This document shows positions 5,954-22,162 of a stretch of DNA of 23,399 nt, piece by piece (position 1 is the first letter of the stretch; each line of letters opens with the position of its first letter). The stretch is from a virus (taxonomy: Duplodnaviria > Heunggongvirae > Uroviricota > Caudoviricetes), in the IMG/VR virus record IMGVR_UViG_3300043313_001192, positions 153,598-176,996 of that record; one strand, 5' to 3'. The translations under genes were made by a program, and so were the position numbers. Below the pieces are notes generated by a model. That model saw only the letters and a list, made by a program, of their open reading frames with translations. It made no database searches and was not told where the DNA came from.

Positions 5954-8900
5954 CTAGATCAAGAACCGCAGAATGCGCGACAGCTCGGCCGAGATCTGGG
6001 GCTGGGAGAGGACGTCACCTCCGGCCATGAACTCAGAGATCTTGCCCCCGGCTTCGGCTAGATGCTCAGGGTCGAGACGCTGCTCGGCGCGCTTGTACAA
6101 GTCCTGCATCAGGCCCTGGAGGTCGGGGGGCAGGTCGGAGAACTTGTACTTCTCGTTGAGGTCACCGAAGACCAGCGGCAGGTTGGCCACCGCCTCAGCC
6201 AGGTTGCCGTAGCCCTCGCGCAGAGTCTTGACCGCACCCTCGTCCTCGGTGTTCTTCGCGATCTGGTCGACCAGGTCGAGCACACCCTTGGCTGCCTGCT
6301 GGGCGGCCTCGGTGTCACCCTGGTTGGCCGCCTGCTGGACCTCGTCGAGTCCTTCGACCGCTTGCTGGGTCCCGGCCTCACCCTGCAGATCCTTCTTCAG
6401 CTCGGCGATCACCATCCGGAACCGACCCTTCTCATCGCGCGGGTGGTTGCCGGGGTCCCACGGCGAGCCGTCGGGGTAACGGCCACCGGCGGCGAGCAGA
6501 CTGATCCCGTCCAGGGTCTCGTCCGAGGCGCGCAGGATCAGCGGGATGCAGGCCCCACCGGCGATCAGCGCCATCCGTGCGGCGAGATCCTCGACCTCAC
6601 CGGCCACGTCCTGGACCGGGGTGCTCAGCGCGGCCCACGACTCCGGGATCAGGTCGGTCTTGCCGAGCGCGCGGGCGCGCTTCTTGATGTGGCGGCGGAC
6701 CTTGGCCTTGTCGCCCTCCTTGGCCCGGCCGTAGGCACGGATGGCGTTCTTCAGGTCGCCCACCGTGGCGATCGGGTAAGAGCCGTCCGGCAGCGCCTGG
6801 CCCTTCTTGGACATCTCCTTGCGCTTGTCGGTGCCGATGTCGCGGAACAGCTCCTCCCCACCGCTCATCAGTGCTGCCATCCGCTCGCGTGCGGCAGCAG
6901 CCTCCGGCGAGCGCAGCGTGACGAACTTGTTCAGCGCCGCCGCGCGAGCCGCGTCCAGCCGGGCCTGGTACTCCGCACGGACCGGGTCCATCCGGGCCAG
7001 CGCGGCGGCGCGGGCCTGAGACAGTGCTTCGCGCTGCGGGGTCTCCAAGGCGTCGACCCGCTCGATCAACCTGTCCAGCGGCGCCGCGTCGGCATCGCTG
7101 CGGATCCGGGCCAACACCGACGTGCCCGCCGCGACCAACGCGTAGACATGTCCGGAGGCCACCCGAGCACGCACGGTGGGGAAGCCGGGCACGTTGACCT
7201 GGCAGATCGCGACCATCTCCAACCGCCCGTTGATTGGACGCCAGTCTCCGGACGGCGCCGCGGCGCGGACCGCCCGGACCTGCTCGGCGTTGATGCTGGG
7301 GCGCATCGCACCGGCCACCCAGATGCCGTAGGCGTCCTCACCGGCGTGCACGTCGCAGAACGCCGAGGCGGTGTCGTCGTAGTGCTTGACCGCCATCGCC
7401 GCGTCGGACTCCAGCGGAGCGTGTCCACCGGCCAGGGTGATCTGCCCGACCGGGACGTCCTTGCCCTCCTCGGTGCGCAGTAGCCCGGTGTGGAAGTAGG
7501 CGTAGTTCGACCGGCTCCGGGGCGGCCGGGTGGAGAACGGGAGCCCGATGTGCTCGGTGTCCCAGGTCGCCACGTGTCCGTAGACCCGACCGTCGTCGAG
7601 CACGGTCAGCGGCGTCTCCTGCTTCAGTCCCGGATCCTCGAACCACTCCTGGGGCGGGTGAATGGGGATGCCCGCTGCGGTCAACGCCGAGCGAACCATC
7701 TCCTCGGTCTCGGCCTCCGTGACGGGAGTTCCGATGTAGGTTCCGTCGGCAACCATGGGCTCTTCCTCCTCCTGGCCTTCCTCTAGCTCGATGCGTACTT
7801 CCTGGAATGCGGGCTTGGCGACGAGCGTCGCGCCCATCACCCGCCCATTGGTGACAGTCATGTCGTCGGCGACGATCCGCACGATGTCGGGGCTCTCGCC
7901 CTCGCCCGGCTCACGCTCGACCGACTCAGGGCTGCGAGCCTCGGCCTCGAAGTTGTCGAGGTCCACCGAGACGCCGCGCAGGAACTTGTGCCGGACCAGC
8001 CGCTCGGCCTCCTGGCCGTACGGCCCGACGTCGAAGACACCACGGGCGTTGACCAGCGAACCGTCCTCGGAGCGCTCCATCGAGTCGATCCGGCCGACGA
8101 TCACCGAGTCGTCGTGGCCCTCGGCGGTCTTGATCTGCCACATCAGCGGCAGCGGCAGGTCGCGAGTGGTCAGCGAGAGCGGTGCGAAGCTGCGCCCGTC
8201 GCCAGACTTGATCCCGATCGGGGCCAGCACCGGGATCACGAACGGCGAGCCGGACAGCTCGGTGGGGACCTGGTCGGCCCGCTCGGGTGCCTCGACACCG
8301 GCGATCAGCGTGTTCGCACCGGCCAACAGCGCCGAGTAGGCGATCACCTCGTCAGTGCTCAGCAGGTGCACGTCGAAGAGCTGGCTGCGCTCGGACGCCG
8401 AGCCGCGCCGCCCGACGTTGCGCCGGTCACCGGGCCACTCGCCGGTCATCAGGTGGTGCAGGCTGGCGCAGTAGCCCTCGCTCATTCCTGGCTTGGGCAT
8501 GTACTTCTTCAGGTGCCGGTTGCACCGGGTCCAGTCGCCAGGGGTGTTCCAGCGGACCTTGGCGGTACCGCCGGTGCCGACCGTCCAGTACTTCTTCAGC
8601 CGGTCCACGTTGGCGACATCGTTGGGGGTGTCGGCGATGCCGGGGATGCCTGCGGCGAGGATCTCGACGACTTCGCCGTACTCGCCCCAGATGGCGGCGG
8701 CCGACGCGGCCACTGACGCTGCGGCGTCCTTGGCCTCCTGCTCGGCCTCGGCCTTGCCCTCGGGCGTCTGGTAGAACGCCTGCACCTGCGTCATCGTGTC
8801 GTTGAAGGTGGCCTCGTCGAGGGAGACGATCGCGGGTGGTGAGCTGGACTGCAGCTGACGCAGCACCTTGGGATCGTTGACCCAGCCGGTCGCGGTGTAG

Positions 8901-11422
8901 CGCAGCACCTGGGCCTGGTTGCCGGTGGTGCTGGCCGGGATCATCGCCAGCAGCTCCAGCACCGCTTCCTGGTTGGCCTCATCCACCTCGGCCATGTAGA
9001 CCGGCGCGACGTCGGACTGGGCAGGGTCTGTGATGGGCTGACCAGTGCCTCCTGCGTCCGGCAGCACCGGCACCTCGGCCGGTTCGTCCTTCTTCTTCCG
9101 GGCCGCAGCGGTCAGCGAGCCGCGCTTGTAGCCAGGCAGGATCTTGCGGTAGATCCGGTCGATGGCGTCGCGCGCGCTCTTGCCACCGGCATGGATCTTC
9201 TCCAGCCGACGCTTGTAGTCGGCATCGGCCTTGGCCTGCTCACGCTCCCACCGCGCCTTGGACTCCTTGTCGAGCGCCTTCTGGGCCTGGTCACGCGCCT
9301 TCTTCCCGGCGCGCTCTTTCTCGATGAAGTTGGGGTAGTTCGCGATGACCGCCTTGATCGCCTCGGCGTCCATCGGTGGCAGCAGCGACTTCAGCAGCGC
9401 CTTGGGCGTGTGCGCAGTAGCGCGCGGAATGGCCTGGATCTTGTCGAGGTCGACCACACCCGGCTGCACCCTGGTGCTCTTGGCCGGGACCCACTCGGAG
9501 GATCCGTCGTCGTCGTAGGTGACCTGGACCTTCTGGGTGGCCGGGTCGATCTTGGCCACGGTGCCGGTCCGGGCCTGCGGACCGACGGCGATCTTGGAGC
9601 CGGACCTGGCGAACCGGCCGCCAGCGTCACGGACCTGCTTCTTGGCGTTGGCCGCGCGCTCCTCAGGGGTGTAGCCGTCGTCCTCGGCGAAGACCTGGGG
9701 GCGGTAGTCGAAGGTGACCCCGGAGGCGGTGACCACCGCGACCCGGTTCAGCATCTCGTTGTCGAGACCAGGGATGGCCTCGGCCATCACCAGAGCCTCA
9801 CCAGGGTCGACCTCGCGCAGGTCGACCGGCTGGTCGGGAAAGATCGACTGTGCCCGGACCACTTCGCGGGCGGTGTCATCGTCCAGCTCGATGATCTGGG
9901 CAGGGGAGCCGAGGTGGGTCTGCTCCCAGGTTCGGGTGCTCGGCTCGAAGCGGTAGAACATCGCGCCGTCACTGACGTAGAGCTGGTCCACGGTCAGCGA
10001 GTCGTCGCCGGTGTAGGCGGCGTAGTAGGTCAGCGGGTCGTCTTCCTCGGTGCCGCGCCGCTCCCAGAACGCCGTCTTGAGGTCGTCGTCCGCGATCAGC
10101 TCCTCCAGCGGGTCGCTGAGGTCGAACTCCTCCCAGTCGACACCGTGGATCTCAGCTGCTGCCTGGACCGGGGACGGGGGCGCCTCGCCGCCGTCGGCGA
10201 CCTGGGCGTCCCAGTACTGCTTGGTCTCCGCGATCTTGGCGTCGATCTCGGTCTTGTTCGCGTAGTAGTCGGCCAGCGCCGCCTGCTTGTGCAGGGTGTC
10301 GTCGACGGCCTTGCCGCAGATCTCGCACGTGTCCGGGTCATCGACGGTCTCGGAGAAGTAGTGCGCGTCGTCGGGCGTGATGTCGGCCTGGTCGTAGTCG
10401 ACGGCGTCGGGCTGGTGCCGCTCGTCCATCTCGCCGGTGCCGCAGTAGGTGCAGACCTCAGGGTTGCTGGTCACCGGGGAGTACACGTGCGGAGCCTCAC
10501 CGTCGAAGCTCTCTCCCTCGGGAACCTCCTCTTCCTCGACGTCCACGTTGGCGTCGGGGTCGTAGCCCGCGGCGACCAGCGCTTCCGCCTCCACCCGACG
10601 GATGGTCCGGGTGGCCCAGTCACGTCCGGCGTCACCGCCTAGTGCTGAGTAGGTCAGGGCGCGCGCCGAGGGGTACCGAGCCGAGGACTTCGAGCCGCCA
10701 CAGCTGCACGACCCGTTGCCGTCGCACTCGGAGGTGTGCGGGCCGTTGATCACCGAGAACGCGCGTGGCAGCAGCCGCAGCGTGTCGTAGTCGACCTCCT
10801 CGTCCTCGGCCAGCTTCTGCCCGATCGTGGTCGCGGCGGTCGTCGAGTCCTGGGTCTCGGTGGCCTGGGCGACCTTGGCGGCCCAGACCTTCCCGGCGTC
10901 ACCGCCCCAGGAGGCCCAGACCGTGGGGTCGACCTTCTCCTTGGGGTGCCGAGAGAAGTAGGTGTGCATCTGCTGGACGACCTGCGGGTGGATGGCAGCA
11001 CCGCTGGCCAGGTGCTCAGCACGGGCAATGTCGGTGCGGTCGAGGTCAGCCTCGACGCTGCTGCGTGCTGCCTCTCGCACCGTGGCCGGTGGCACCAGGC
11101 TGGTTCCGGCGGCGATCACCGGCAGTTCGATCTCACGCTGGTAGGTGGTGGTCCAGCGCAGTGCCTGTCGGGCGCTGGCCCGGACCGGCTCGGGGACGGT
11201 GAAGGTGCGCAGCGGATCGACGTCGACCGCCAGCGCCGAGCGAGCGAGCAGGGTGGCGCGGCGCTCTTCGGTGCTGCGCCCGGAAGGGACGAAGCCGCCA
11301 TGGCTGGTCAGCTCAGCAGCGCTGAAGACGTCGGTGACGTCACCACTCTTGAGATCGACGGCGACTGCTGACCCGGCGTGCTCGAAGAACATCCAGCCAC
11401 TGCTCGCACCCAGCGTTCGCAT
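5954..11422 (-). CDS. 1822-aa capsid maturation protease polyprotein (two protease-like domains plus accessory modules)
   Basis: Uninterrupted ORF between cargo genes and MCP, carrying GHD/GVSVD/LVAKPAF and GH/SGDWR/VNVPGFP motif sets. Confidence 0.88.
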   Translation of the reverse strand: MRTLGASSGWMFFEHAGSAVAVDLKSGDVTDVFSAAELTSHGGFVPSGRSTEERRATLLARSALAVDVDPLRTFTVPEPVRASARQALRWTTTYQREIELPVIAAGTSLVPPATVREAARSSVEADLDRTDIARAEHLASGAAIHPQVVQQMHTYFSRHPKEKVDPTVWASWGGDAGKVWAAKVAQATETQDSTTAATTIGQKLAEDEEVDYDTLRLLPRAFSVINGPHTSECDGNGSCSCGGSKSSARYPSARALTYSALGGDAGRDWATRTIRRVEAEALVAAGYDPDANVDVEEEEVPEGESFDGEAPHVYSPVTSNPEVCTYCGTGEMDERHQPDAVDYDQADITPDDAHYFSETVDDPDTCEICGKAVDDTLHKQAALADYYANKTEIDAKIAETKQYWDAQVADGGEAPPSPVQAAAEIHGVDWEEFDLSDPLEELIADDDLKTAFWERRGTEEDDPLTYYAAYTGDDSLTVDQLYVSDGAMFYRFEPSTRTWEQTHLGSPAQIIELDDDTAREVVRAQSIFPDQPVDLREVDPGEALVMAEAIPGLDNEMLNRVAVVTASGVTFDYRPQVFAEDDGYTPEERAANAKKQVRDAGGRFARSGSKIAVGPQARTGTVAKIDPATQKVQVTYDDDGSSEWVPAKSTRVQPGVVDLDKIQAIPRATAHTPKALLKSLLPPMDAEAIKAVIANYPNFIEKERAGKKARDQAQKALDKESKARWEREQAKADADYKRRLEKIHAGGKSARDAIDRIYRKILPGYKRGSLTAAARKKKDEPAEVPVLPDAGGTGQPITDPAQSDVAPVYMAEVDEANQEAVLELLAMIPASTTGNQAQVLRYTATGWVNDPKVLRQLQSSSPPAIVSLDEATFNDTMTQVQAFYQTPEGKAEAEQEAKDAAASVAASAAAIWGEYGEVVEILAAGIPGIADTPNDVANVDRLKKYWTVGTGGTAKVRWNTPGDWTRCNRHLKKYMPKPGMSEGYCASLHHLMTGEWPGDRRNVGRRGSASERSQLFDVHLLSTDEVIAYSALLAGANTLIAGVEAPERADQVPTELSGSPFVIPVLAPIGIKSGDGRSFAPLSLTTRDLPLPLMWQIKTAEGHDDSVIVGRIDSMERSEDGSLVNARGVFDVGPYGQEAERLVRHKFLRGVSVDLDNFEAEARSPESVEREPGEGESPDIVRIVADDMTVTNGRVMGATLVAKPAFQEVRIELEEGQEEEEPMVADGTYIGTPVTEAETEEMVRSALTAAGIPIHPPQEWFEDPGLKQETPLTVLDDGRVYGHVATWDTEHIGLPFSTRPPRSRSNYAYFHTGLLRTEEGKDVPVGQITLAGGHAPLESDAAMAVKHYDDTASAFCDVHAGEDAYGIWVAGAMRPSINAEQVRAVRAAAPSGDWRPINGRLEMVAICQVNVPGFPTVRARVASGHVYALVAAGTSVLARIRSDADAAPLDRLIERVDALETPQREALSQARAAALARMDPVRAEYQARLDAARAAALNKFVTLRSPEAAAARERMAALMSGGEELFRDIGTDKRKEMSKKGQALPDGSYPIATVGDLKNAIRAYGRAKEGDKAKVRRHIKKRARALGKTDLIPESWAALSTPVQDVAGEVEDLAARMALIAGGACIPLILRASDETLDGISLLAAGGRYPDGSPWDPGNHPRDEKGRFRMVIAELKKDLQGEAGTQQAVEGLDEVQQAANQGDTEAAQQAAKGVLDLVDQIAKNTEDEGAVKTLREGYGNLAEAVANLPLVFGDLNEKYKFSDLPPDLQGLMQDLYKRAEQRLDPEHLAEAGGKISEFMAGGDVLSQPQISAELSRILRFLI
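6539..6563. repeat. 25-bp direct repeat, copy 2 (in protease polyprotein)
   Basis: 24/25 identical to 4271..4295; encodes AGGACIPL. Confidence 0.9.
7150..7665 (-). other. Second prohead-protease-like domain of the 1822-aa protein (approximate bounds)
   Basis: GHVATWD (His1283, 7574-7576), SGDWR (Ser1391, 7250-7252), closing VNVPGFP analogous to the V..PA motif. Confidence 0.55.
7795..8245 (-). other. HK97/assemblin-fold prohead protease domain of the 1822-aa protein (approximate bounds)
   Basis: LPLM.Q...GHD...VGRI (His1103, 8114-8116), GVSVD (Ser1152, 7967-7969), GATLVAKPAF. Confidence 0.85.
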
Positions 11423-11442: not shown

Positions 11443-11613
11443 TCAGGCCGAAGGAGCGGGCTCCTTCGGCTCGGTGCCTGCGGTTTCGTCAGTAGGCGCC
11501 GCGGCAGCGCCCGTGGACTCGCCGAAGAACGAGGTCACCTGCCCGGAGACACGGGCGGCGAACTGTTCGGGTGACTCACCAGGCTTCTGCGTCATGGTCA
11601 GCACTTGTGGCAT
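11443..11613 (-). CDS. 56-aa hypothetical protein; start revised to 11613
   Basis: GGAGATTCCTCATG gives MPQVLTMTQKPGESPEQFAARV...; overlaps the upstream gene by 38 nt. Confidence 0.6.
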   Translation of the reverse strand: MPQVLTMTQKPGESPEQFAARVSGQVTSFFGESTGAAAAPTDETAGTEPKEPAPSA

Positions 11614-11893
11614 GAGGAATCTCCAATCCTGCATAGTCGAAGTAGGGCAGCAGGTCATCGAGGAACCGGCCGTACTGGGGGTCGCCGGGCGGGACCACGG
11701 ACAGGTCCCCGACCTTGGCCACCGCGGGCAGCAGGTCGTGCGGCACCCAGGTCAGGTAGATGGTGCCGTCGGTCTCGCGCCACGAGTCCGGCGACGCTCC
11801 GGCCAGATAGGTCAGGTAGGAGGCGTAGCCCTCCTGGGTCAGGTGCTGCGGGCAGGGCAGGTCAGTCCGTGGGGGCGGCGGTGGGTGCGGCAT
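11576..11893 (-). CDS. 105-aa hypothetical protein, paralog of 11862..12242; start revised to 11893
   Basis: GGGAGGTGCCCGATG; 30/80 ungapped identity with the upstream paralog. Confidence 0.8.
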   Translation of the reverse strand: MPHPPPPPRTDLPCPQHLTQEGYASYLTYLAGASPDSWRETDGTIYLTWVPHDLLPAVAKVGDLSVVPPGDPQYGRFLDDLLPYFDYAGLEIPHATSADHDAEAW

Positions 11894-12242
11894 CGGGCAC
11901 CTCCCTGGTCGGGCGTGGCTCGGGTGCCACCGGCGTCGGCTCCATGAAGTCATACTCCGGCACGACGTGGTTCAGCCAGCGCGCGTAGGTCGGGCTGTCC
12001 TGGGTGATGTAGGTGGGTGAGTCCACCATCCCCACGTCGGGCGCCATCGAGGCAGGCATCCGGCTCAGGTAGATCGTCCCGTCCTGGTCACGCCAGGCAT
12101 CGACCGGGTCCGCGGCCAGGAACTCCAGCCATTCGGCGTGCTCCTCCGGGGTCCCACCCTCGGGCGGCTGCAGGTCAGACCGGGGCTTCGGTGGCGGCGG
12201 GATCTTGGTCGGCGGCTGGGGCTGCTGGGGCTGCTCCGTCAT
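11862..12242 (-). CDS. 126-aa hypothetical protein, paralog of 11576..11893
   Basis: GAGGAGGTGCCAGATG; shared PR.DL and D.WR..DGTIYL motifs. Confidence 0.8.
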   Translation of the reverse strand: MTEQPQQPQPPTKIPPPPKPRSDLQPPEGGTPEEHAEWLEFLAADPVDAWRDQDGTIYLSRMPASMAPDVGMVDSPTYITQDSPTYARWLNHVVPEYDFMEPTPVAPEPRPTREVPDAAPTAAPTD

Positions 12243-12405
12243 CTGGCACCTCCTCGGTACTCACGACTGCGCTGGGGAACATGGCGCGCCATTCCTCGGG
12301 CGTCATCCTGATCTTGTCGAACGCCGGGTCGTTGGGCGGGTTGCCCTCGTAGTTCAGCATCATCAAGAACTCGACCGCAGTCAGCGACTCCACATCGACA
12401 GCCAT
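12175..12405 (-). CDS. 76-aa hypothetical protein; ATG at 12405
   Basis: TGATG overlap with the giant-gene stop; GGAG/GAGG upstream; overlaps the next gene by 68 nt. Confidence 0.6.
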   Translation of the reverse strand: MAVDVESLTAVEFLMMLNYEGNPPNDPAFDKIRMTPEEWRAMFPSAVVSTEEVPDDGAAPAAPAADQDPAATEAPV

Positions 12406-15400
12406 CACTCATCCTCATCTCCAGGAGGGATTGCACCAGGGGGCAGTGGCGGCGGCGGAGCCTCCGGGGACACTCCCGCCCACTCGAACGAGTCGTAGAA
12501 CTCATCGCGCTCCCGTACGGCCTCGGCGCTGTAGTCGATCTGCTCCGGGCGAGAGACGAGGTCAGGCTCGGTCTCGTCGACCACGTCGGCGGCAGCGGCG
12601 ATCGGGGCAGCAGGAGCAGGAGGCAGCGTGGGGCCAGGGTGCTCGGGGACGCCGGTGTACTCGACCAGCTCGTCGAAGGAGTGCGGCAGGTCCAGCTCGT
12701 TCTCCAGGTCCCACCAGACCGAGGGCGAGACGTAGTGGTCCCTGGCGGTGCCCCACCCGTCGTTGATGCGCTGGCCCGCCGCCTTCCAGACGCTGATCTT
12801 GAACTTGTCGAACTCCGCCTGGCTCATGCCCTTCTTCGGACGCACCGGGCGGGTGCCCTTGCTGCTCTTCTTCTTGTAGGCCACCAGCGTGCCCAGGAAC
12901 TGCCGCGCCGCGTTGGTGGCCACGTAGGTGCGCAGGTCGTGGTTGATCAGGTCGGGGATGCCCGTCGACTCACGCAGGTAGTTGATCGACTGGTCGGCGG
13001 TGACGTCGCCGAAGATGAACTCGTTGCGCCCCTTGCCCTTGCTCCACTTCTCCAACGCCGCCTGCAGCCGGGGCTCCTTGATCGTGTAGTCGTTGTCGAT
13101 CCCGGACTTGCCCATGAAGTCGAACCGCACCGAGTTCTGGTTGAACCGCAGGTGCTTGGGCATCAGCGACGTCCCGCCGATCACCTGCTCCAGCTTCTTG
13201 CGCTTCTGGCTCTTGGTGCGGTTCTTCCCCTTCGCGTTGTCCACCCGCATGCCGGTCTCGATCAGGGTGGCCACCAGCGCCGCGACCGGGTCGTCCATCG
13301 CCTCGTTCAGCGCCTTCTCGCGCAGATCCGCGTGCACCTTGTGCAGCGCCTTCTCGCGCTGGAACTTCTGGGCGTTGCCGGTCTTGCTGTGCTTGTAGTC
13401 GTAGATGTTCGTGGGTGTGTCGTTGCCCGGCATGATGACCTTCATCAGCAGGGTGCCGTCCTGAGAGGCCCAGTTGCGGTTGTACCAGACCCCGATGGCG
13501 TCCTTGGACGGGCCGGTGAAGTCGGGGTTCGCCTCCTTCATCGCCGCCATCACCGAGTCCCAGTTCTGGTCGCCCGGTCTGATCTCGGTCATGTCGAGCT
13601 GGCCGTGGGCCTCGCTCTTGTGCTTGCTGGCCCGCTCGATCTGAACCACGTTCGGCAGCGGCTGCTCCTGCTTGGGTGCTGGTGCTCCCAGCGCCGAGGA
13701 GATCTGGTTCTGGACAGGTACCCGCTTCTTGACGACGACCGGGCTCTTCATCATCTCGGGCAGCGTGTGGTTCTCGAAGTTGTCGAAGAACTCGAAGATC
13801 GCCTGCCCGGCTTCGGTCTTCCTGTCTCCCATTTCCCGCAGCGTGATCCCGTCAGCACGAGCCGGACCCCAGTGCCCGTGCAGCAGGGCGCTTCCACCCT
13901 TGGTGTAGACAGACTGCTTCCAGTTCTCCCCGTCGCGCCCCTCCTCGGGCTCCGCCAGCATCCGGCGCATCGCGGCGTACGCGGCGTACCCCTGTGCCCA
14001 CATCTCGGTGGTCCCGGCAGCGCCGTTGTGGGTAGTTGCCCCCTCGTCCTGGTTGCGGTAGTACCAGTTCAGCAAGGTCGCGTCCGGGGCATCACCGTAG
14101 GAGGCGATCTCCTGCAGCTTGGCGCGCAGCGCCAGGAACTCAGGGTCGCCGTCGCTGTAGAACCCGCGCCTGCCCTGGGAAACAGAGACCTCACCGATCA
14201 TCGAGTCCAGCGCGTGACCCAGCTCGTGGCTGACCACGTTGGTGACGCCGTCACCCCACTGGAAGGTCGAGTCGGCGACCACGACGTTGTTCTCGTGAGG
14301 GATGTAGTGCCCGGTGGTCTGCTCAGGTGTGCGGTCGTCAGCTCCATCGTGAGGAGGGTTGACCCAATCTGGCGACGTCACGATCGAGGCGTAGTTCGTG
14401 CTGGCCTCGGTGACGTTGCTGCGCGTGCGGTGGATCCCGCCGCCGTAGGCGGCGTACATCGAGTTCAGCGCAGCGGCGACGTTGGGGGTGATCTCCGAGA
14501 CGCCTTCGTTGAACGCCATGTCGGCCACGACCGTCTGGTCGGTGCCCTCACCAGTGCGATCGTCGACAGTCAGGTTGGACGAGAGCGTGTTCTCCCCATC
14601 CCAGGTGAGCAGAGTCTTCTTGCCGCCGGTCAGGTCGGAGACCAGCTCGGCGTCCCCGTTCTTGACCGCCTCGTCAAGATCCAGGTCAGTCAGGGTGCTG
14701 TTCAGGAACCCGAAGCGATCCTGGTCTGAAGCCGCGCGGATCGCGTCAGCGAGTGCGGGGGAGACGCCGCCGTGTGCACGCTGGTACTCCGCAGCCTGGT
14801 TGACGATGTGGGCGTAGACACCGTGCCCGGCGGCACTGCTGCTGTTCGCCAGCTGGAGGGCGATCTGGTCGACCAGTGCGATCGACTCTTTCTCAGCAGG
14901 CTTGCCGGTGTCCTGAACCAGACGGAAGTCCATCATCGACTTGTCGGCCTTCTGCCGCATCTCGACCGGTGGATAGGCGTCCATGCTGAGCAGGTCGCCC
15001 ATCTCGTGCTTGTCGAGCTGCTCACGCAGCACGTCTTCCAGAGGTGCTGGGTCGAGGCCCGCACTGCGGAGCTGGTCGAACATCGTCTTGGCTGCGGTGA
15101 TGTCGTCGGTCAGCCGCCGAGCGGACTCGGTGGCCGCCACCACCTCGAAGTCGTGCATCTTGCTGCGGACCTCCGGGTCGCGCAGTGACATCGCATGCTC
15201 CGCGGTCGAGGCGACCTCGGGCATCATGTCGATGAACTCGTCGGTGTTCTCGATCGTGTTGCCCGGACGCATCGCGCGTTCAAGGTTGCTGCCCTGGATC
15301 TTGGCTGATCCGGCACGCTCCATGGGTGTGGACAACCAGTCGCTGGCGTAGAGCTTGTCCACCTCGGCCTTGCCCTCGGAGGCGGCCGAGACGACCTGCT

Positions 15401-18400
15401 CACCGAGGATCTGGTTGATGTCACCGCTGGCCAGATCCGGGTCCACCTGGGCGTCGAAGTTGGCCCACAGATCGAGCACGTCCTGGACGGCCTCGTCGTT
15501 GTAGCGACCCAGCACCGTGCTGACGTGCTCGGGTGTGAGCTGGTCGAAGCCGCCACGCCTCATCGAGAACATCATCCGGGTCTCGTCGGCGAACTTCGTC
15601 TCGGCTTCCAGCAACCGGTTGTTGAGCAGCTGGTCAGCGATGCTGCCCTTCTCGACGTTCTTGGAGAGCTTCTCGTTGATCTGGTGCAGCGACTCGAAGT
15701 AGTCGGTGATGGCCTGACTGCGCTTGTCCTGGAACTCGGGGCTGACTACCAGGTCGCGGATGGCAGCGGGGTCGGAGGCACTGAGGCGAAAGGGCGCGTC
15801 GCCACCACCTGCCTCTCCAGGGGTCTCACCCTGTGACGGGCCTTGCCCGCCGTCCAGCTCGTCAGCCACTCGACGCAGTTCGTCGACGGCCGAGCTGGGA
15901 TCGCTGAGTCCGAAGTTGCCTTCGAGGTAGTCGGCCAGCCTGCGCAGATCCTCCGACAGCTCGGTGTAGGGACCCTCGCTGGTGATCCGGCCGCGGATCA
16001 GGCCGAGCTGGGCGTTGGCCTCGTCGGTCAGCTCGGTCCAGCCGACCGGGCCGTTGTCGCCCTCGGTCTCGTTCTCGGTCTCGATCGCGCTCTCCACGTC
16101 GGAGAGAGCGCTCTGGACCTCGGCTACTTGGGCGGCTTCTGGCCCGCTGCCTGCTGGCCCTTCGGGCGCTTGCTCTTCGGGAGGAACACCGGGTTCGGCT
16201 TCTCCACCTTCCGGGCTTGGGCTCTCCAGTCGCCTGGCCCCCGGAACTCCTTCTTCTGGTCCTGTGCCACCGGCTTGCTCCTCTGCCACGTGTGGGGGCC
16301 AGTATCCCAGCCCGTCCTTGAAGTTGTACGCGCCACCCTCGGATCCGGAGTACGCACCGACCGCCTCGACGTCGTCGAGGTTGTCGAAGACCAGCACCGG
16401 GTCGATCTCGTAGTTGCCGGTGTCGTCGTTGCGGAACACGCCGAGGTGGGCCTGCTCCGCCCACAGGGGGCTGTCCTCGTCGGCGCCGAACTGGGCCAGC
16501 GCCTGCTCCATGCCAGCGTCGAAGTCCTCCTGGCTGGACCCGATCGGGACATTGACGGTGTCAGTACCGGGCGGGCGGAAGGTGATCGCGTAGGCGTCCT
16601 CGTCGCCGGTGATCGCCTGCCCGGTGTGGGCGTCGATGGTGACGCCGCCCCACTCCTCCTGGACCGAGTCCCAGGCGGTGCTCTTGACCTCGTCCCAGGT
16701 CTGGCCCTGCAGCGCGTCGGGTGCTGCGGTGTTCTCCAGGATGCCGTCCAACCGGTCGCGGCCCTTGAGCGCCAGCGCGGTGTACTCCTCCGGGGAGACC
16801 TCGCGGGTACGCGGGGTCTCGGGGTTGGAGAACTGGCTCGGGGTGAGCGGCTCCACCTCGGGCATCCCGGCAGCGTCCAGTGCCTCACGCGCGGTGCCCG
16901 CTCCCTGCTGCGGAGCCTCCGCGACGGCAGGAGCCTGCTCGGGTGCTCCCTCGGGAGCCGTGGCCGGACCGGTGACACCACCCATGGCGTCGAGCCGGTC
17001 GGCGTGCTCGCGGGCTCGGGCGGAGGGAGCGTCGGTGGGTGTGTCGGCCCCGTCGTAGGCGTCCGCGGCGTCGCGGAACTTCTGCGCCGCGGCGGCGTTG
17101 TCGCCGTTCTTGATGTCGGCGCGGGCGCCGTCGACCAGGCTGCGGACCTCGTCGCTGCGGGACAGACCGCTCAGGAGGTTGCCGACGTCACTGGTCCGGC
17201 GGAGCGCAGTGTTCTGGCTGGAGTAGCCGCGCGCGCCCTCTTCCCCGGCGGCGCGTGCGAGTCGGTGCGCCATCTGGCTGGCGACACCCTTGTCCGAAGG
17301 CTTCTCGAACTGGTCTGCTCCCAGGCCATCGACGTGGTCCGCCAGCCGTGAGGCGTCCGCACCATTGATCTCCTCGCCGTTCTTGACCGCCTCGGTGATC
17401 CGGCTGATCTCCGGGTCGGCCCCTTCGACTCCCGCCACGTGGTCGAGCATCTTCTTCTGCTTCGACGTCGAGCGGGCAGCGACCCTGCCGGTCCCGGCAG
17501 TGCGGACTGCGCGCTCCTCGGAGCGGGGGTCCTCGACCGCCTCGGCGGGCATGTCCTTGTCACTGTCGAGCGCGACGTTCATCATCGCGCCGTCGGCGAC
17601 GTTCACGTACTGGTTGGTGCCTGCGGTCCTCGCCGCGTCGCTGGCGTCCTGCTCCTCGTCGAAGACACCGACCCGCGCCATCCGGTAGCGGCCGTCGTCC
17701 TCGTCGTGCCAGATCGAGACGCCGTCGAAGCTGCTGCCCTCGGTCTCGGCCAGGAAGTCGGTGATCTCCTCGGCAGTGGGCTCGGCGTCATACTCCGAGA
17801 CGGTGGCGTGGTCCACCACGTAGAAGCCCTCGTCCACCTGCTGGTCACCCTGCATCACCAGCGCCGAGCCGTCATCAGCCTGGACCGCATCGGAGACCGC
17901 GTCGTCGACCTTGTCGACCACCGGGTCCACACCTTCCGGCGTCACGTCCGGAGCGCCCTCGGGACGCTCCTGGCGGGAGACCGGCTGCGACGCGCCACCG
18001 AAGAGGTCAGTGCCCGCGTCGACCTTGGCCTGCAGCACCTGCAGCAACGGTGGCCTGTTCTGGCCACGCCCACCCTGGGGGTTGATGCCGGTGAGCATCG
18101 CGTGCAGCTTGCTGCCCTTCAGGTTCGCGTTGACGTTGGTGTTGACGACCCTGGACAGCTCGCCCACCGCGCTGAGCAGTGCCTGGGCGTCCTCGGCCTC
18201 TACTGCGGCGGTGACACCGTCCAGGTACTTGCGCAGCTGCCTGCGCTGGGTGGGGTCCTTGGCCGCAGCCATCGCCTCCTCGCCGAACCCCTGCAGGATC
18301 TTGTTCATCTGCTGTGCTTCGGACACCGCGGCAGGCGTCTCTTCAGGCGGCACCTCAGCCCCCTGCTCCGGGCCGGTCCCGGTCTCCTGAACGGCCTGCT

Positions 18401-20576
18401 CGACGGCCTGGGTGTCGTTGGAGGGGATCGGGTCCTCGGTGTTGTCGTTGACGATGGTCTGGCCGTCCTCCTCACGGACGGTGGCTCCCTCGGGCGTGAT
18501 CTTCTCGCTCGGATTGTCCGGGTTCTGCGGTGCCTCGCCGCCCATCTCCGGATCCGGTGTGGGTGCCTCGGGCGGCTCGGGTGCCGGGTCGCTGGGCTCG
18601 CGGAAGTACCCGGCCGAGGCCATGAACAGCTGGTCCCGCTTGTCCAGCAGGTCCTGGTCCTCGGCACTGAGTTCCTGCCCGGCGGCCCTGGTCTGGTCGC
18701 GCTTGTTGTAGAGCGCGTCGATGTCGAACAGCTGGTCCTGGAAGGCGGCGTCGGTGGACATCGCGGCCTGGATGGCGTTCGCGTCGCCGTCGTCGCGGAT
18801 CACCTGGGAGACCGAGGTGGCGCCCATCTCATCGGTGAGCAGGGCGGCCTGCTCGCGGGTCGGCACGTAGTTGTTGGTGTTGGACTCCGACTCACCGGGA
18901 TAGACCTCGCTGGTCGGGCCGTGGTGACGCCTCAGCTTGTTCGCGGTGACGCGGGAGGACTTGCCGTTGTACCAGTACACCTTGGTGGTGTTCGCGTTCG
19001 GCTCCATGTAGGAGATGTAGCCCTCTTCGCCGTTGGGTCCCTGCACGGCGTCGCCGATCCCCAGCCTCTGGCCGTTGGCGTCCTTCTTCTGGCGCAGGTG
19101 GATGGGGACGACGTCGAAGAGCCCGGCCCCGCCACCGGTCCGCGAGCGCCTCAGCGCTCCTGGGGTGGCGTACCGCTCGCGCACGGCGGTGATGTACTCC
19201 TCGGTGAACGACTTCACCAAGGACTTGCTGGCCTCGTCCTGCCCCTCCAGCGCGAGCCGCTGGAACAGTGTGCTCTGCTGGTCCTCGCTGGCCATCTCGA
19301 TCGACTTGGCGTCCACCGGATGGTCGTAGTAGGGGACCGGGACCTTGCTCTTGGTCCCGTCGGCGTTCTTGACGGTCTTGGTGTAACCCTTCTCCATCAG
19401 CGGGTCGAGGTCGCGGACGTAGATGTGCTTCTTCTGGGCGCTGTCGGTGTAGAGACGGACGATCGGACCGGTGAACGCGGCCCGTCCCCTCTTGGTCGCG
19501 TCGACGTCCACGATGTGGCCGACCCGGACCACGGTCTCCCCGGTCTTGTCGACGTGGTGTCGGTCACCGGGAGCGACCTGCTGGGCCTGCTTGGAGCCGA
19601 CCAGTCGATCCCGTGCAGCGCCGAGCTTCGCGTAGGCCGAGCGCCAGTACTCGGGCAGCCCTTCGGTCTGGGGCTCGGCGACGGTGTCGCGGACCTCGGC
19701 CTTGACCGGCTGCTCCAGCTGGCCCTCGACCAGCGAGCCGGAGGTGATGTCCCAGACCTTGGCGTCCTCGGCGTAGCTCTTGGCCAGCTCGTTCTGCGCC
19801 GCCTCCTCACGGACCTCGGGCTGGTTGCCCTGCATCCGCCCCTGACTGGTCTCGATGTCCTCGACGGTCTTGTCCCCGAGGGAGTGCCGGGCGGTGTAGC
19901 TGTTCTTGATGACGTCGTCGAGGTTCGCCAGCCGGGTGGCCTCCTCCTTGGGCAGGTTGGCCTTGGCCTCCTCGTAGTCCTCACCGTCGGCGAACCCCTT
20001 GCCGCGCTCGTCCCCGACTGCCTCGCCGACCTCGCGGAACAGGTCGATCGCCTTCTGCTTGTCGGCGACCGACTTCGGGTCGCGCGGGTTGGGCGGCAGC
20101 ATCGCCAGCCGCTGGGCCTCGGCCATCTTCTTGGCCTCTTTGCCCATGCCCATCTTCTTCAGGGAGTTGATGGCGGTGGTGACACCGACGTTCTCCTGGT
20201 TCTGCAAGATGCCGACGTGGCTGCCCTTGCCCGCGAGCTGAGCCTTGACGGTGCGGACCTGGACCTTGTCGTGGGGCACCTTGACGTAGCCGTTCGCGTC
20301 GACCCGTGGGTCAGCACCAGGGGTGGTGCCTTGGATCTTGACCAGCAGGTTGCCGTCCCGGTCGATGCCCGCGACCCGGCCCGACGCAGTCCCGCCACCG
20401 GGCAGGTCGAAGGTGACGAAGGAGAAGGTCCGGATGAACCGCCCGTTCTCGTCGCGGGGGTGCTTGAGCGGGTTCCACTTCCGGCCCATGGAGTCGATGA
20501 CGACGATGAACTCGTCGCGGTGCCCCAGGTTCATGAACTCGGTGTTGGCGTACCGAAAGATCTGCGGGGTGGTCAT
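12405..20576 (-). CDS. 2723-aa polyvalent protein: HPRD-GRF/SH3-like N-terminus, repeated alpha/beta domain, HEXXH zincin, C-terminal topoisomerase IB-like domain
   Basis: 8.2-kb uninterrupted ORF; ATGA overlap upstream and TGATG overlap downstream; recognisable catalytic motifs. Confidence 0.9.
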   Translation of the reverse strand: MTTPQIFRYANTEFMNLGHRDEFIVVIDSMGRKWNPLKHPRDENGRFIRTFSFVTFDLPGGGTASGRVAGIDRDGNLLVKIQGTTPGADPRVDANGYVKVPHDKVQVRTVKAQLAGKGSHVGILQNQENVGVTTAINSLKKMGMGKEAKKMAEAQRLAMLPPNPRDPKSVADKQKAIDLFREVGEAVGDERGKGFADGEDYEEAKANLPKEEATRLANLDDVIKNSYTARHSLGDKTVEDIETSQGRMQGNQPEVREEAAQNELAKSYAEDAKVWDITSGSLVEGQLEQPVKAEVRDTVAEPQTEGLPEYWRSAYAKLGAARDRLVGSKQAQQVAPGDRHHVDKTGETVVRVGHIVDVDATKRGRAAFTGPIVRLYTDSAQKKHIYVRDLDPLMEKGYTKTVKNADGTKSKVPVPYYDHPVDAKSIEMASEDQQSTLFQRLALEGQDEASKSLVKSFTEEYITAVRERYATPGALRRSRTGGGAGLFDVVPIHLRQKKDANGQRLGIGDAVQGPNGEEGYISYMEPNANTTKVYWYNGKSSRVTANKLRRHHGPTSEVYPGESESNTNNYVPTREQAALLTDEMGATSVSQVIRDDGDANAIQAAMSTDAAFQDQLFDIDALYNKRDQTRAAGQELSAEDQDLLDKRDQLFMASAGYFREPSDPAPEPPEAPTPDPEMGGEAPQNPDNPSEKITPEGATVREEDGQTIVNDNTEDPIPSNDTQAVEQAVQETGTGPEQGAEVPPEETPAAVSEAQQMNKILQGFGEEAMAAAKDPTQRRQLRKYLDGVTAAVEAEDAQALLSAVGELSRVVNTNVNANLKGSKLHAMLTGINPQGGRGQNRPPLLQVLQAKVDAGTDLFGGASQPVSRQERPEGAPDVTPEGVDPVVDKVDDAVSDAVQADDGSALVMQGDQQVDEGFYVVDHATVSEYDAEPTAEEITDFLAETEGSSFDGVSIWHDEDDGRYRMARVGVFDEEQDASDAARTAGTNQYVNVADGAMMNVALDSDKDMPAEAVEDPRSEERAVRTAGTGRVAARSTSKQKKMLDHVAGVEGADPEISRITEAVKNGEEINGADASRLADHVDGLGADQFEKPSDKGVASQMAHRLARAAGEEGARGYSSQNTALRRTSDVGNLLSGLSRSDEVRSLVDGARADIKNGDNAAAAQKFRDAADAYDGADTPTDAPSARAREHADRLDAMGGVTGPATAPEGAPEQAPAVAEAPQQGAGTAREALDAAGMPEVEPLTPSQFSNPETPRTREVSPEEYTALALKGRDRLDGILENTAAPDALQGQTWDEVKSTAWDSVQEEWGGVTIDAHTGQAITGDEDAYAITFRPPGTDTVNVPIGSSQEDFDAGMEQALAQFGADEDSPLWAEQAHLGVFRNDDTGNYEIDPVLVFDNLDDVEAVGAYSGSEGGAYNFKDGLGYWPPHVAEEQAGGTGPEEGVPGARRLESPSPEGGEAEPGVPPEEQAPEGPAGSGPEAAQVAEVQSALSDVESAIETENETEGDNGPVGWTELTDEANAQLGLIRGRITSEGPYTELSEDLRRLADYLEGNFGLSDPSSAVDELRRVADELDGGQGPSQGETPGEAGGGDAPFRLSASDPAAIRDLVVSPEFQDKRSQAITDYFESLHQINEKLSKNVEKGSIADQLLNNRLLEAETKFADETRMMFSMRRGGFDQLTPEHVSTVLGRYNDEAVQDVLDLWANFDAQVDPDLASGDINQILGEQVVSAASEGKAEVDKLYASDWLSTPMERAGSAKIQGSNLERAMRPGNTIENTDEFIDMMPEVASTAEHAMSLRDPEVRSKMHDFEVVAATESARRLTDDITAAKTMFDQLRSAGLDPAPLEDVLREQLDKHEMGDLLSMDAYPPVEMRQKADKSMMDFRLVQDTGKPAEKESIALVDQIALQLANSSSAAGHGVYAHIVNQAAEYQRAHGGVSPALADAIRAASDQDRFGFLNSTLTDLDLDEAVKNGDAELVSDLTGGKKTLLTWDGENTLSSNLTVDDRTGEGTDQTVVADMAFNEGVSEITPNVAAALNSMYAAYGGGIHRTRSNVTEASTNYASIVTSPDWVNPPHDGADDRTPEQTTGHYIPHENNVVVADSTFQWGDGVTNVVSHELGHALDSMIGEVSVSQGRRGFYSDGDPEFLALRAKLQEIASYGDAPDATLLNWYYRNQDEGATTHNGAAGTTEMWAQGYAAYAAMRRMLAEPEEGRDGENWKQSVYTKGGSALLHGHWGPARADGITLREMGDRKTEAGQAIFEFFDNFENHTLPEMMKSPVVVKKRVPVQNQISSALGAPAPKQEQPLPNVVQIERASKHKSEAHGQLDMTEIRPGDQNWDSVMAAMKEANPDFTGPSKDAIGVWYNRNWASQDGTLLMKVIMPGNDTPTNIYDYKHSKTGNAQKFQREKALHKVHADLREKALNEAMDDPVAALVATLIETGMRVDNAKGKNRTKSQKRKKLEQVIGGTSLMPKHLRFNQNSVRFDFMGKSGIDNDYTIKEPRLQAALEKWSKGKGRNEFIFGDVTADQSINYLRESTGIPDLINHDLRTYVATNAARQFLGTLVAYKKKSSKGTRPVRPKKGMSQAEFDKFKISVWKAAGQRINDGWGTARDHYVSPSVWWDLENELDLPHSFDELVEYTGVPEHPGPTLPPAPAAPIAAAADVVDETEPDLVSRPEQIDYSAEAVRERDEFYDSFEWAGVSPEAPPPPLPPGAIPPGDEDE
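12690..13560 (-). other. Type IB DNA topoisomerase-like domain (approximate bounds)
   Basis: VW...Y...H....KFQR leader; TGMRVDN (R2444, 13245-13247); FDFMGKSG (K2490, 13107-13109); HDLRTYVAT (R2549, 12930-12932); ARDHYVSP (Y2615, 12732-12734). Confidence 0.82.
13900..14450 (-). other. Zincin metallopeptidase domain, lethal-factor/Pro-Pro-endopeptidase-like (approximate bounds)
   Basis: G.Y......VVV...HELGHALD (aa 2117-2121, 14214-14228), SDGDPEF, and TEMWAQGYAAY (Glu2191, 14004-14006). Confidence 0.78.
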
Positions 20577-22162
20577 GGCAGCAGGTCCCGGTCGTCGGTG
20601 CGCGCGGAGAGGTCGCCCTGGGCCAGCCGGATCAGGCTGTTCACCCGCGCCTGGGCGATCAGGTCGCGCGGCAAGGGTGGGCGGCTCTGCGGCGCGGTCA
20701 TGGTGTACTCCCTGACCCCGCGCACATAGGCCGCGCGCAGGGCGGTGTCGGAGATGGTGGAGAGCTGGGTCTTGAGGGCGAAGAGGTCCGGAACGTCATT
20801 GCCGTTCTGGGCTGGGACCGCAGTGACGTCTTGAGCTGGCGCAGCTGCCTGAGCTGCCTGCGCAGCTGTGGCCGATGTCGACTGACGCAGCCAGTGCTGC
20901 GGGATCATGTGCTGCAGGCTCAGCTCGCGGGCGCGCTTGGCCAGCCGACGCCGGGTGAAGACCCGCGACAACTCGGCTTCGATCTGGTCGGCGGCCTCGC
21001 AGGCGGTGGCCAGCGACTCAGCATCGTCGACGGCGAGCCGAGGCGCGGTGCCGAAGACGTCGATGAGCAGGTGGTCGCCCTCCAGCGGAGGGTCCTCGAT
21101 CGCCTCGGTCATCGCCTTGGTGAGTGCGGCCACAAACTCCGCGTCGAGTCCCATGTCATCGCCGGTGAGCAGGTTGGGCTCGGTACCAGACGCTGGCCCA
21201 GTCACCAGGTAGCCGAAGTGCGCGGAACCATCGCCGTTGAGCTCGATTATCGGAGCGTCGGCGTCGTCGGTCGCGTGAGACATGATCGAAGCGTCGGAGT
21301 CGATGTTCGCGTGGGACCGTGCCTTCTTCTCCTCCCACTCAGCTACCGCGGCGCACGCTTTGGCTCGTGATCCCGCGTTCTCGTGCTGAACGCCAGGGAA
21401 GTTCAGGTCACCGGTCGCGCACGCCTTCTTCACGGCGTTGACTGCCGTGGCGATCGCGTGTCCTTGCTTCATGCCCTTCTCTTGGAGGTGCTTGGCGATC
21501 CGCTTGATGTACTTGGGCAGACCGCCGACCTTCTCGACCCAGTTGAACTCGTTGTCGTCGATGGCCATGACGTCAGAGAACTCGACGTCGGGAAGGTCTT
21601 CGTCCGAGTCAGGACCCTCGGGGATGGTCGACTCGGCGGACGGTCCGAGCGGGTACTCGGTGTGCTCCTCACCGTCCCAGACCGCGAGTCGGTCGAAGAT
21701 GACCTCCTCGGGGAGGTCGTCGTCGGGGACCGGCTCCTCCAGGTCGTAGCCGAGGGTGACGTGCGGGGTGTAGCCGGGGAACTGCTGGACGGCCCCGGTG
21801 CCCTCGCGCAACTCCGGGGCCGCCAGCAGGTTCTCGCGGAGGGCAGGCAGCTCGTCACCGCCGAGGTGCACCACCTGGGCGTTCTCGTCGCCGAGCAGCC
21901 CCTGGGACTCGACCTGGCTGGTGACCGGCCCCGTGCTGCTCTCCGCTACGCCGCGCACTGCGTCCTGGACCGCCTCCATGTCCAGAGCCGGGTTCTCCTC
22001 AGGCTTGCCCAGCCAGAGCACCGTGGCGTGCTTGGGCTCGGAGACGTCCCCGATGTGGTGGATCGGCTCGGTGGCGGTGGGGATCGCCACGATGCAGCGC
22101 CCGGAGTTCTTGCGCTCCTCGAAGTCGTCGGGCTCATCAGGAGTGATCGGGATCTCGGTCAT
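20573..22162 (-). CDS. 529-aa protein: N-terminal 2H phosphoesterase (LigT/Acb1-like) plus two small helical modules
   Basis: HxT motifs HATV (22022-22030) and PHVTL (21755-21763); ATGA overlaps at both ends. Confidence 0.85.
   Translation of the reverse strand: MTEIPITPDEPDDFEERKNSGRCIVAIPTATEPIHHIGDVSEPKHATVLWLGKPEENPALDMEAVQDAVRGVAESSTGPVTSQVESQGLLGDENAQVVHLGGDELPALRENLLAAPELREGTGAVQQFPGYTPHVTLGYDLEEPVPDDDLPEEVIFDRLAVWDGEEHTEYPLGPSAESTIPEGPDSDEDLPDVEFSDVMAIDDNEFNWVEKVGGLPKYIKRIAKHLQEKGMKQGHAIATAVNAVKKACATGDLNFPGVQHENAGSRAKACAAVAEWEEKKARSHANIDSDASIMSHATDDADAPIIELNGDGSAHFGYLVTGPASGTEPNLLTGDDMGLDAEFVAALTKAMTEAIEDPPLEGDHLLIDVFGTAPRLAVDDAESLATACEAADQIEAELSRVFTRRRLAKRARELSLQHMIPQHWLRQSTSATAAQAAQAAAPAQDVTAVPAQNGNDVPDLFALKTQLSTISDTALRAAYVRGVREYTMTAPQSRPPLPRDLIAQARVNSLIRLAQGDLSARTDDRDLLP

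Follow-up and report, generated by a model that had tools for sequence, protein, structure and literature searches.

A complete type IB topoisomerase domain in the cargo part of a giant head-module protein of a large tailed phage

The TopIB domain and its described relatives

Type IB topoisomerases (TopIBs) are known as free enzymes from eukaryotes, poxviruses, giant viruses, some bacteria and a few jumbo phages. The enzyme of Deinococcus radiodurans (structures 2f4q and 3m4a) is a free cellular protein of ~ 346 amino acids (aa), the poxvirus enzyme (vaccinia H6R and its variola counterpart; 1a41, 2h7f and 3igc) is a free protein of 314 aa that has been counted among the known enzymes of the virion (PMC1540416), and stand-alone TopIBs have been described in some jumbo phages (Iyer et al. 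2021, PMC7824862). Here, we describe a TopIB domain that is embedded in a giant phage protein of 2723 aa (P0001), encoded by an open reading frame (ORF) at positions 12405-20576 on the minus strand of a 23,399-nucleotide stretch of IMG/VR record IMGVR_UViG_3300043313_001192 (positions 153,598 to 176,996), which is hereafter called the window. Positions given without a locus name are those of the window, and all features of the giant protein lie on its minus strand.

An earlier note, made from the sequence alone, had proposed that a full TopIB domain is fused to the end of this head-module protein. Pfam, phmmer searches of the PDB, a family profile and AlphaFold2 modelling combined with Foldseek confirmed the domain: aa 2340-2640 (12657-13559) form a complete two-domain TopIB, in which an N-terminal beta domain (aa ~ 2340-2400) precedes the catalytic domain (aa ~ 2401-2640). 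The ORF is open over 2723 codons, and its third-position guanine-cytosine (GC) content, 0.82-0.95 over the full length with the topoisomerase part included, is typical of real genes of the same genome. The Pfam family Topoisom_I (PF01028) matches the region marked in the earlier note (aa ~ 2340-2630) with 47.8-52 bits (E 1.5e-12 to 8e-14) at a gathering cut-off of 23.7, TopIB chains alone (6z01, 2b9s, 1a41 and 2h7f) rise above the noise in the phmmer search, and neither a tyrosine integrase nor any match to PF00589 was found in the 177-kb genome. The listed motifs are all present, namely, GVWY (aa 2362-2365), KFQR (2404-2407), GMR (2442-2444), FMGKSG (2487-2492), DLRT (2547-2550) and RDHYVSP with Tyr2615. 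An exhaustive search with the TopIB domain yielded 632 proteins at E <= 1e-3, 60 of which were aligned (alignment A1); the best match of the resulting family profile is the Deinococcus TopIB 2f4q, which is covered nearly over its full length (E 1.2e-50, profile positions 20-277). A search for related loci with the single TopIB domain as the query returned none, and a 13-sequence alignment returned 10.

The AlphaFold2 model of aa 2330-2640 has a predicted local distance difference test score (pLDDT) of 92.4 and a predicted template modelling score of 0.89, and it displays the two-domain C-clamp fold, with a small N-terminal beta domain plus the catalytic domain. Rather than pointing to another fold, the Foldseek search of the PDB favours TopIB: the best 22 matches are all TopIBs (human, variola, Deinococcus, an archaeon and Leishmania), and tyrosine recombinases appear from rank 23 onward at E >= 1e-3. 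The variola chain 2h7f superposes over 310 columns (310 of its 314 residues) with template modelling (TM) scores of 0.69/0.69. The nearest viral predicted structures are the stand-alone TopIBs of Pseudomonas phage PaBG (gp84) and Achromobacter phage Motura (E 9e-14, TM 0.70), followed by the giant-virus and poxvirus enzymes.

The domain is closest to the bacterial and poxvirus branch of TopIB. With the Deinococcus enzyme, it shares the two-domain layout, the Arg-Lys-Arg-Tyr set and the position of the tyrosine nine residues after the Asn column; however, the phage domain has His2546 and Asp2606 where the free Deinococcus protein has Lys (at the position of vaccinia K220) and Asn280, and it contains an additional basic insertion of ~ 16 residues before the last helices. 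The poxvirus enzymes provide the best full-length superposition at an identity of ~ 14-16%, with Lys2490 corresponding to K167 and the DLRT motif to K220-R223; in contrast to the phage protein, they carry His265, and their presence in the virion is known, while that of the phage protein is only inferred. The PaBG and Motura TopIBs are encoded by separate genes (541-562 aa) and show neither a giant fusion nor a zincin domain, and the PaBG gene lies beside nucleotide and DNA-repair genes. PaBG also provides the sole tblastn match of the TopIB piece among 50,697 GenBank phage records (27% identity).

The active site was assessed by column counts over the 60 aligned relatives and by residue-level alignments to 1a41 and 2f4q. 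Arg2444 (13245-13247) occupies the position of vaccinia R130 (Arg in 59/59), Lys2490 (13107-13109) was aligned to K167 of 1a41 (Lys in 60/60), and the stretch His2546-Asp-Leu-Arg2549 (12930-12941) corresponds to K220-R223, with His standing in place of K220 and the equivalent of R223 being Arg in 59 of 60 sequences. The predicted nucleophile, Tyr2615 (12732-12734), which corresponds to Y289 of 2f4q and to Y274 of the variola enzyme, is a tyrosine in 60/60 and lies in the motif GTARDHYVSP (GTSKLNYLDP in the human enzyme), a C-terminal motif of the S-K-x-x-Y type. The earlier note gave R-K-K-R-H/N-Y as the catalytic set of poxvirus and bacterial TopIBs; the Arg, Lys, Arg and Tyr of this set are present, whereas the second Lys is replaced by His2546 and the H/N column holds Asp2606. 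These replacements are common in the family: the K220 column contains His in 41 sequences, Lys in 18 and Tyr in 1, and the column of poxvirus H265 and Deinococcus N280 contains Asn in 37, Asp in 22 and His in 1, with the window protein having Asp2606 in the column itself and Asn2605 one residue before it (Asn2605-Asp2606, 12759-12764). Asp is always accompanied by His at the K220 column (22 of 22 sequences), and the coupled change is kept across the whole subfamily of the window protein, which suggests a compensating pair in a TopIB subfamily. Vaccinia mutants that lack H265 or K220 still perform catalysis, although more slowly; therefore, we rate the phage domain as probably catalytically active.

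Carrier and cargo of the giant protein

The way in which the TopIB domain is attached to the rest of the protein differs among its relatives. A search with aa 1-2330 recovered eleven relatives, which, together with the TopIB-domain matches, were sorted with a local BLAST map. P0154, P0159, P0006 and L006 are full-length fused relatives that include the TopIB in frame. P0155-P0158 and P0161 (1570-1717 aa) match aa 1 to ~ 1598 alone, and P0005 and P0007 (~ 1070-1100 aa) match aa ~ 1650-2712 alone. In the 175-kb relative L005, the two parts are adjacent genes located between the portal gene and the gene of a 1782-aa protein, and the contigs that encode P0156 and P0158 lack the second part. This series of fused, separate and absent states indicates that the giant protein consists of a carrier of ~ 1600 aa (aa 1 to ~ 1597, 15786-20576) and an optional cargo of ~ 1100 aa (aa ~ 1598-2723, 12408-15785), the latter occurring as a separate or frameshift-linked unit of ~ 1060-1100 aa in P0005, P0007 and the L005 gene. 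Thus, the proposed fusion holds for the window, but it is one of two states, as relatives use an extension in the -1 frame or lack the module. The cargo appears to be exchangeable, given that P0160 (2724 aa, from a JGI metagenome), which has carrier aa 1-1022 in common with the window protein at 63% identity, harbors a NUDIX domain (aa 1614-1716) in place of the TopIB.

These data raise the question of how the carrier and cargo come to be joined. In the window, the junction is the heptamer CCCTTTC (15788-15794), read in frame (CCC TTT) as Pro1596-Phe1597, and the same in-frame Pro-Phe dipeptide is found at the junction of the other fused relatives. In three divergent relatives, the same heptamer has the form of a canonical X_XXY_YYZ slippery sequence, C_CCT_TTC (L005:14665-14671; L003:3528-3534, with the same site in L004:3124-3130; L016:6608-6614), and tblastn homology moves at this point from the carrier frame to the -1 frame. 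The carriers of these relatives are 47-64% identical to that of the window, and their zero frame stops 13-17 codons past the heptamer. The -1 frame, which is homologous to window aa 1596-1668, contains no ATG, GTG or TTG for 54-73 codons past the heptamer; such a conserved but start-free stretch would be translatable solely by ribosomes that had begun in the carrier frame. In carriers that are not followed by cargo, both the Pro-Phe site and the overlap tail are absent. A nucleotide codon-position test past the slip, which is valid for the window-L005 pair alone, gave 9, 7 and 13 differences at the three positions, and because a one-codon indel spoils the other pairs, the case for frameshifting rests on the absence of start codons together with protein conservation. 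On these grounds, L005, L003/L004 and L016 probably use a programmed -1 ribosomal frameshift.

Another question is whether the in-frame state of the window could be a homopolymer slip. Two runs from soil metagenomes provide contigs (X1 record 4 and X2 record 8) that span the window junction without differing bases or gaps, X1 possibly being the sample from which the record itself derives, and the region differs from that of L005 at several bases; thus, the in-frame state is not such a slip. A -1 frameshift extension in a structural gene of a phage is familiar from the lambda G/GT tail chaperone, and the relatives resemble it in the X_XXY_YYZ heptamer and in a predicted short major product accompanied by a long, C-terminally extended minor product with an additional function. 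However, the extension considered here is ~ 1100 aa long and carries two enzymes rather than a chaperone, the gene belongs to the head module, and in some lineages the extension is fixed in frame.

The carrier has no Pfam, PHROG or NCBIfam match except for a weak one to the SH3-like BPL_C domain, and an ESM Atlas search with aa 1-330 returned no usable match. Near its N-terminus, it contains the motif HPRDENGRF (aa 39-47, 20436-20462), a candidate capsid-targeting tag, of which a second copy, PRDEKGRF, is present at aa 1661-1668 of the 1822-aa protein encoded nearby. The pattern PR[DGNSE]xxG[RK][FWY] occurs in 10 of 152 TopIB-bearing proteins, mostly near the N-terminus, and 0.06 occurrences are expected from shuffled sequences. 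We hypothesize that the HPRDxxGRF motif serves as a loading tag.

The cargo is composed of a helical region, a zincin-like metallopeptidase domain, the TopIB domain and an acidic tail. The zincin-like domain (aa ~ 1990-2285, 13722-14609) contains the motif HELGH (aa 2117-2121, 14214-14228), which, together with a downstream Glu (...TEMWAQGYAAY), is invariant in nine relatives. This region matches PHROG 4415 'peptidase' (E 2.5e-7) and was modelled by AlphaFold2 with a pLDDT of 80; its best folds are M34 gluzincins (the catalytic domain of lethal factor and Pro-Pro endopeptidases) at a moderate level (E 2e-4, TM 0.41), its neighbours in language-model space are the ATLF, M90 and Mx1 peptidases, and no Pfam peptidase family matches at E <= 1. 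Behind the TopIB domain, a Pro-rich linker leads to an acidic and aromatic C-terminal tail (aa 2641-2723, 12408-12656; ...RERDEFYDSFEW...GDEDE), which is conserved in all close relatives.

Genomic position and TopIBs of other phage proteins

The window represents the last 23.4 kb of a complete virus record of 176,996 bp with a GC content of ~ 67%. The virus is an uncultured phage from soil, the hosts of which are high-GC bacteria, and near-identical DNA is present in soil metagenomes (runs X1-X4). What the record lists as a "direct terminal repeat" is a perfect overlap of 69 bp (positions 1-69 and 176928-176996), as is typical of circular or permuted assemblies, and it therefore carries no information on the physical ends of the genome. 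The end of the record cuts the portal gene, the N-terminus of which lies beyond the end of the window.

The order of genes on the minus strand is portal, a 529-aa 2H protein, the 2723-aa giant protein, small ORFs, an 1822-aa protein and the major capsid protein, followed by a major-tail-like protein and a head-tail adaptor. The portal protein (22159-23397, minus strand) matches PHROG 776 (E 3e-71). The start codon of the giant gene shares bases with the stop codon of the gene upstream of it (ATGA). The 1822-aa protein (5954-11422, minus strand) matches head-protease and virion-protein PHROGs, and the major capsid protein (3272-5320, minus strand) shares 46% identity with its counterpart in the Actinomycetia phage DSL-LC01 and ~ 40% with the capsid proteins of Microbacterium and Arthrobacter phages of ~ 190 kb. 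In DSL-LC01, too, the portal and capsid genes flank a giant ORF, which is 3289 aa long, and the order portal, 2H, giant, protease-like and capsid is repeated in the relatives L005 and L006. In the complete 177-kb record, no other topoisomerase is encoded, both type IA and type II being absent.

TopIB domains of other phage proteins also occur in such surroundings. The assumption of the earlier note that TopIBs are normally stand-alone does not extend to the phage relatives, as 50 of the best 150 matches (of 632) are at least 700 aa long. Of these long proteins (>= 700 aa), 38 from metagenomes were scanned against Pfam, and they contain portal domains (Portal_Mu in 3, Phage_portal_3 in 1 and Phage_portal in 1), Phage_Mu_F (3), domains of the polyvalent type (LPD37 in 3, LPD38, LPD3 and ART-PolyVal in 2) and further domains such as NUDIX (4), 2H (3), InPase, GNAT, PemK and DNA methylase. 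P0010, for example, combines GNAT, PemK and TopIB, and P0002 combines LPD37 and TopIB. In the unrelated smaller phages L008 (GC 0.52) and L010 (GC 0.60), the TopIB gene follows genes for a portal, a MuF-like protein and a large protein of the ADP-ribosyltransferase type, and another large multi-enzyme protein is encoded after it. P0044 (2882 aa) stands at the end of the structural module of a temperate phage, and P0011 stands between GNAT-bearing and DRAT-like giants. The TopIB catalytic domain in L008:8672-10678 and L010:9533-10666 is covered by PHROG 23460, which is labelled 'unknown function', indicating that phage TopIBs are under-annotated in that library.

Architectures that combine portal, MuF and polyvalent domains have been interpreted as proteins that are packaged in the head and injected together with the DNA, and zincin peptidases have been proposed as self-processing modules of polyvalent proteins (Iyer et al. 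2017, PMC5512222). The giant protein resembles polyvalent proteins in that it is a multi-enzyme protein encoded beside portal and head genes, contains a zincin and belongs to a set with 2H, NUDIX, GNAT and ART companions; two disparate activities (zincin and TopIB) are present in one polypeptide, the gene of which lies between those of the portal and major capsid proteins. However, the hallmark domains of polyvalent proteins (LPD, MuF, ArdC-N and ART-PolyVal) are seen in other proteins with TopIB homologues but were not detected in the giant protein, and its cargo is joined, through a fusion or a frameshift, to a carrier that belongs to no known family. In the main text of PMC5512222, the word 'topoisomerase' occurs in the reference list alone (a Toprim title, type IA/II), and in the searched literature we found no description linking TopIB to MuF, portal, polyvalent or virion proteins of phages.

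A small acidic protein of 76 aa (isoelectric point, pI, 4.1) is encoded immediately downstream of the giant gene (12175-12405, minus strand), with its start overlapping the giant stop codon (TGATG), and it is conserved in L005, L003 and L006. An 88-aa ORF at 12239-12505, which has a pI of 10.8 and no relatives, was rejected as an out-of-frame artefact, the 76-aa ORF being the real gene. Acidic ORFs of 49-53 aa (pI 4.1) also overlap the TopIB stop codon in the unrelated loci L008 (10660-10821) and L011 (10663-10812), and their motif of the DxFF...PEPDF type resembles the acidic tail of the giant protein (aa ~ 2680-2723). Complex prediction for the TopIB domain and the 76-aa protein gave a score of 0.47, rated as weak support, with 0.00 for the best control; between runs, 0% of contacts were shared, and the pLDDT of the partner was as low as 36. 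Among solved complexes, 58 of 80 attain a score of 0.47, as do 2 of 110 mismatched pairs, with only 7 of the 80 but both mismatches doing so at 0.60 or less.

The 529-aa protein (20573-22162, minus strand) has an N-terminal 2H phosphoesterase domain (2'-5' RNA ligase/Acb1-like; Pfam PF13563, E 7.9e-6, and PF23474, E 6e-4; PHROG 24711). Its gene adjoins that of the portal directly, and this position is conserved in relatives, while the Acb1-like match is weak; it is a candidate for a virion-delivered enzyme that degrades nucleotide signals. Two further small acidic proteins of 126 and 125 aa are encoded on the minus strand at 11862-12242 and 11576-11953; they are overlapping paralogues with a common ...D.WR[DE].DGTIYL... 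core behind a poly-Pro N-terminus, and a conserved counterpart of the pair is present in L005 (18232-18612 and 18581-18898). NCBIfam provided no match for the giant, 529-aa, 1822-aa or 76-aa proteins.

Proposed function and alternatives

The location of the gene within the capsid-assembly module, on a giant protein, makes it probable that the TopIB is packed into the particle and delivered with the DNA. An enzyme that is made late is of use at the onset of infection only when the particle carries it over, and as the genome encodes no other topoisomerase, virion delivery is the most economical explanation. The idea of a virion-borne topoisomerase, which was already voiced in the earlier note, is supported by the comparative context, i.e., the head position, the portal, MuF and polyvalent fusions and the gene arrays of unrelated phages. 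We therefore favour, with some reserve, a reading in which a complete and active TopIB is the cargo of a carrier to which it is tethered, is made late, is packaged and is released with the DNA, relaxing the entering genome.

Under this reading, the TopIB would cut one strand via Tyr2615, hold the end as a 3'-phosphotyrosyl intermediate, allow the DNA to swivel and reseal it, all without ATP. In the window, the tether of the cargo to the ~ 1600-aa head-module carrier with its N-terminal HPRDxxGRF motif would be the in-frame fusion; in close relatives, it would be the -1 frameshift at C_CCU_UUC, by which a fraction of the carriers would be loaded with cargo. The carrier-cargo protein would be synthesized late with the head proteins, assembled into the prohead and enclosed in the capsid, where the zincin or the head protease may trim the cargo free. 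Released with the DNA in the next host, the enzyme would relax torsion on the entering 177-kb genome in early transcription and replication. The working model is the poxvirus virion topoisomerase, which would act in the same way.

Several observations weigh against this reading. The giant protein itself has no MuF, portal or LPD domain according to Pfam, PHROG and NCBIfam, and no virion proteome or cultured relative carries the protein; a tblastn search of the 50,697 GenBank phage records with the whole giant protein yielded no match at E 1e-5, and megablast of its gene against GenBank phages gave no match. Two positions close to the active site are non-canonical (His2546 for the K220 Lys and Asp2606 for His/Asn), so that catalysis could be slower or altered. 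The CCCTT/TCCTT target sites show no bias in the genome (observed/expected 0.93-1.03, mid-rank among all pentamers). With regard to the frameshift, the 90 nucleotides downstream of the heptamer in the relatives are no more stable in minimum free energy than shuffled sequences (z 0.04 to 0.34), in an analysis that covered hairpins only.

Four other explanations were weighed. The enzyme could be an intracellular swivelase that is not packaged, is made late and acts on replication intermediates, on concatemers or on the torsion of the packaging motor, with its place in the head operon reflecting timing. Its status as the sole topoisomerase of the genome would suit such a role, as would the jumbo-phage TopIBs (PaBG gp84), which are stand-alone and encoded beside DNA-metabolism genes. 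However, a fusion or frameshift tether to a 1600-aa head protein has no obvious purpose for a soluble enzyme, close relatives (P0156 and P0158) dispense with the module, and homologues are fused to portal and MuF proteins, both of which are virion components; we regard this explanation as unlikely. Still less probable is a host-directed effector that damages DNA and is inhibited until delivery by the acidic tail, the 76-aa acidic protein or both. Domains of the toxin type (PemK, ADP-ribosyltransferases and NUDIX) do co-occur in polyvalent proteins, small acidic ORFs overlap the TopIB stop codon in the family and in L008 and L011, and the content of the cargo varies between relatives as it does in polymorphic toxin systems, but the religation set Arg-Lys-Arg-Tyr is fully conserved, as in a true topoisomerase, the CCCTT content of the phage's own genome is ordinary, and for a phage that encodes no further topoisomerase, a simpler use of the enzyme is at hand.

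The replaced residues give rise to a further explanation, in which the chemistry of the domain is altered and it serves as a DNA clamp or as a covalent 3'-phosphotyrosyl anchor that ties the giant protein to the genome for ejection or protection. The presence of Asp in place of the His/Asn that contacts the scissile phosphate, always together with His at the K220 column (22/22) and throughout the subfamily, points in this direction, and the model adopts a closed clamp similar to the DNA-bound state, the best full-length fit being to variola-DNA complexes. Against this stand the slowed rather than abolished catalysis of vaccinia enzymes that have lost H265, the 37 of 60 relatives that keep the canonical Asn and the lack of any sequence hint of a specific site at the genome ends, and we consider an anchor as improbable as the effector. 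A site-specific tyrosine recombinase, an integrase or a telomere resolvase shares the catalytic fold, and recombinases and protelomerases are indeed found from Foldseek rank 23, although at E >= 1e-3 and TM ~ 0.3-0.38, whereas TopIBs reach E 1e-11 and a TM of up to 0.69; as TopIB alone has such an N-terminal domain along with KFxR, FxGK and DLRT motifs, and PF00589 is without a match in the genome, this possibility is very remote. Thus, a virion-delivered TopIB remains the reading that we prefer.

More broadly, we put forward, as a tentative proposal, that a family of large actinobacterial phages uses a capsid-internal carrier to load exchangeable cargo into the virion, the cargo being zincin plus TopIB or NUDIX or missing, depending on the lineage, with the dose set by a -1 frameshift at C_CCU_UUC and the cargo hard-wired in frame in some members, the window phage included. 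The sole topoisomerase of this phage, with its His/Asp variant, would then act on the genome at its entry and be a counterpart, among bacterial viruses, of the poxvirus virion enzyme. The division into carrier and cargo, the candidate frameshift and the His/Asp co-variation are new here. The series of fusion, frameshift and absence among relatives represents a natural experiment on how an optional cargo is attached to a capsid carrier and how its copy number might be set, and the coupled His/Asp substitution provides a biochemical variant of the TopIB mechanism that is open to testing. If the proposed delivery is true, the poxvirus strategy of packing a topoisomerase into the particle would be shared by bacterial viruses, and a DNA-topology activity, which we did not find described as such in the searched literature, would join the catalogue of polyvalent and injected phage proteins.

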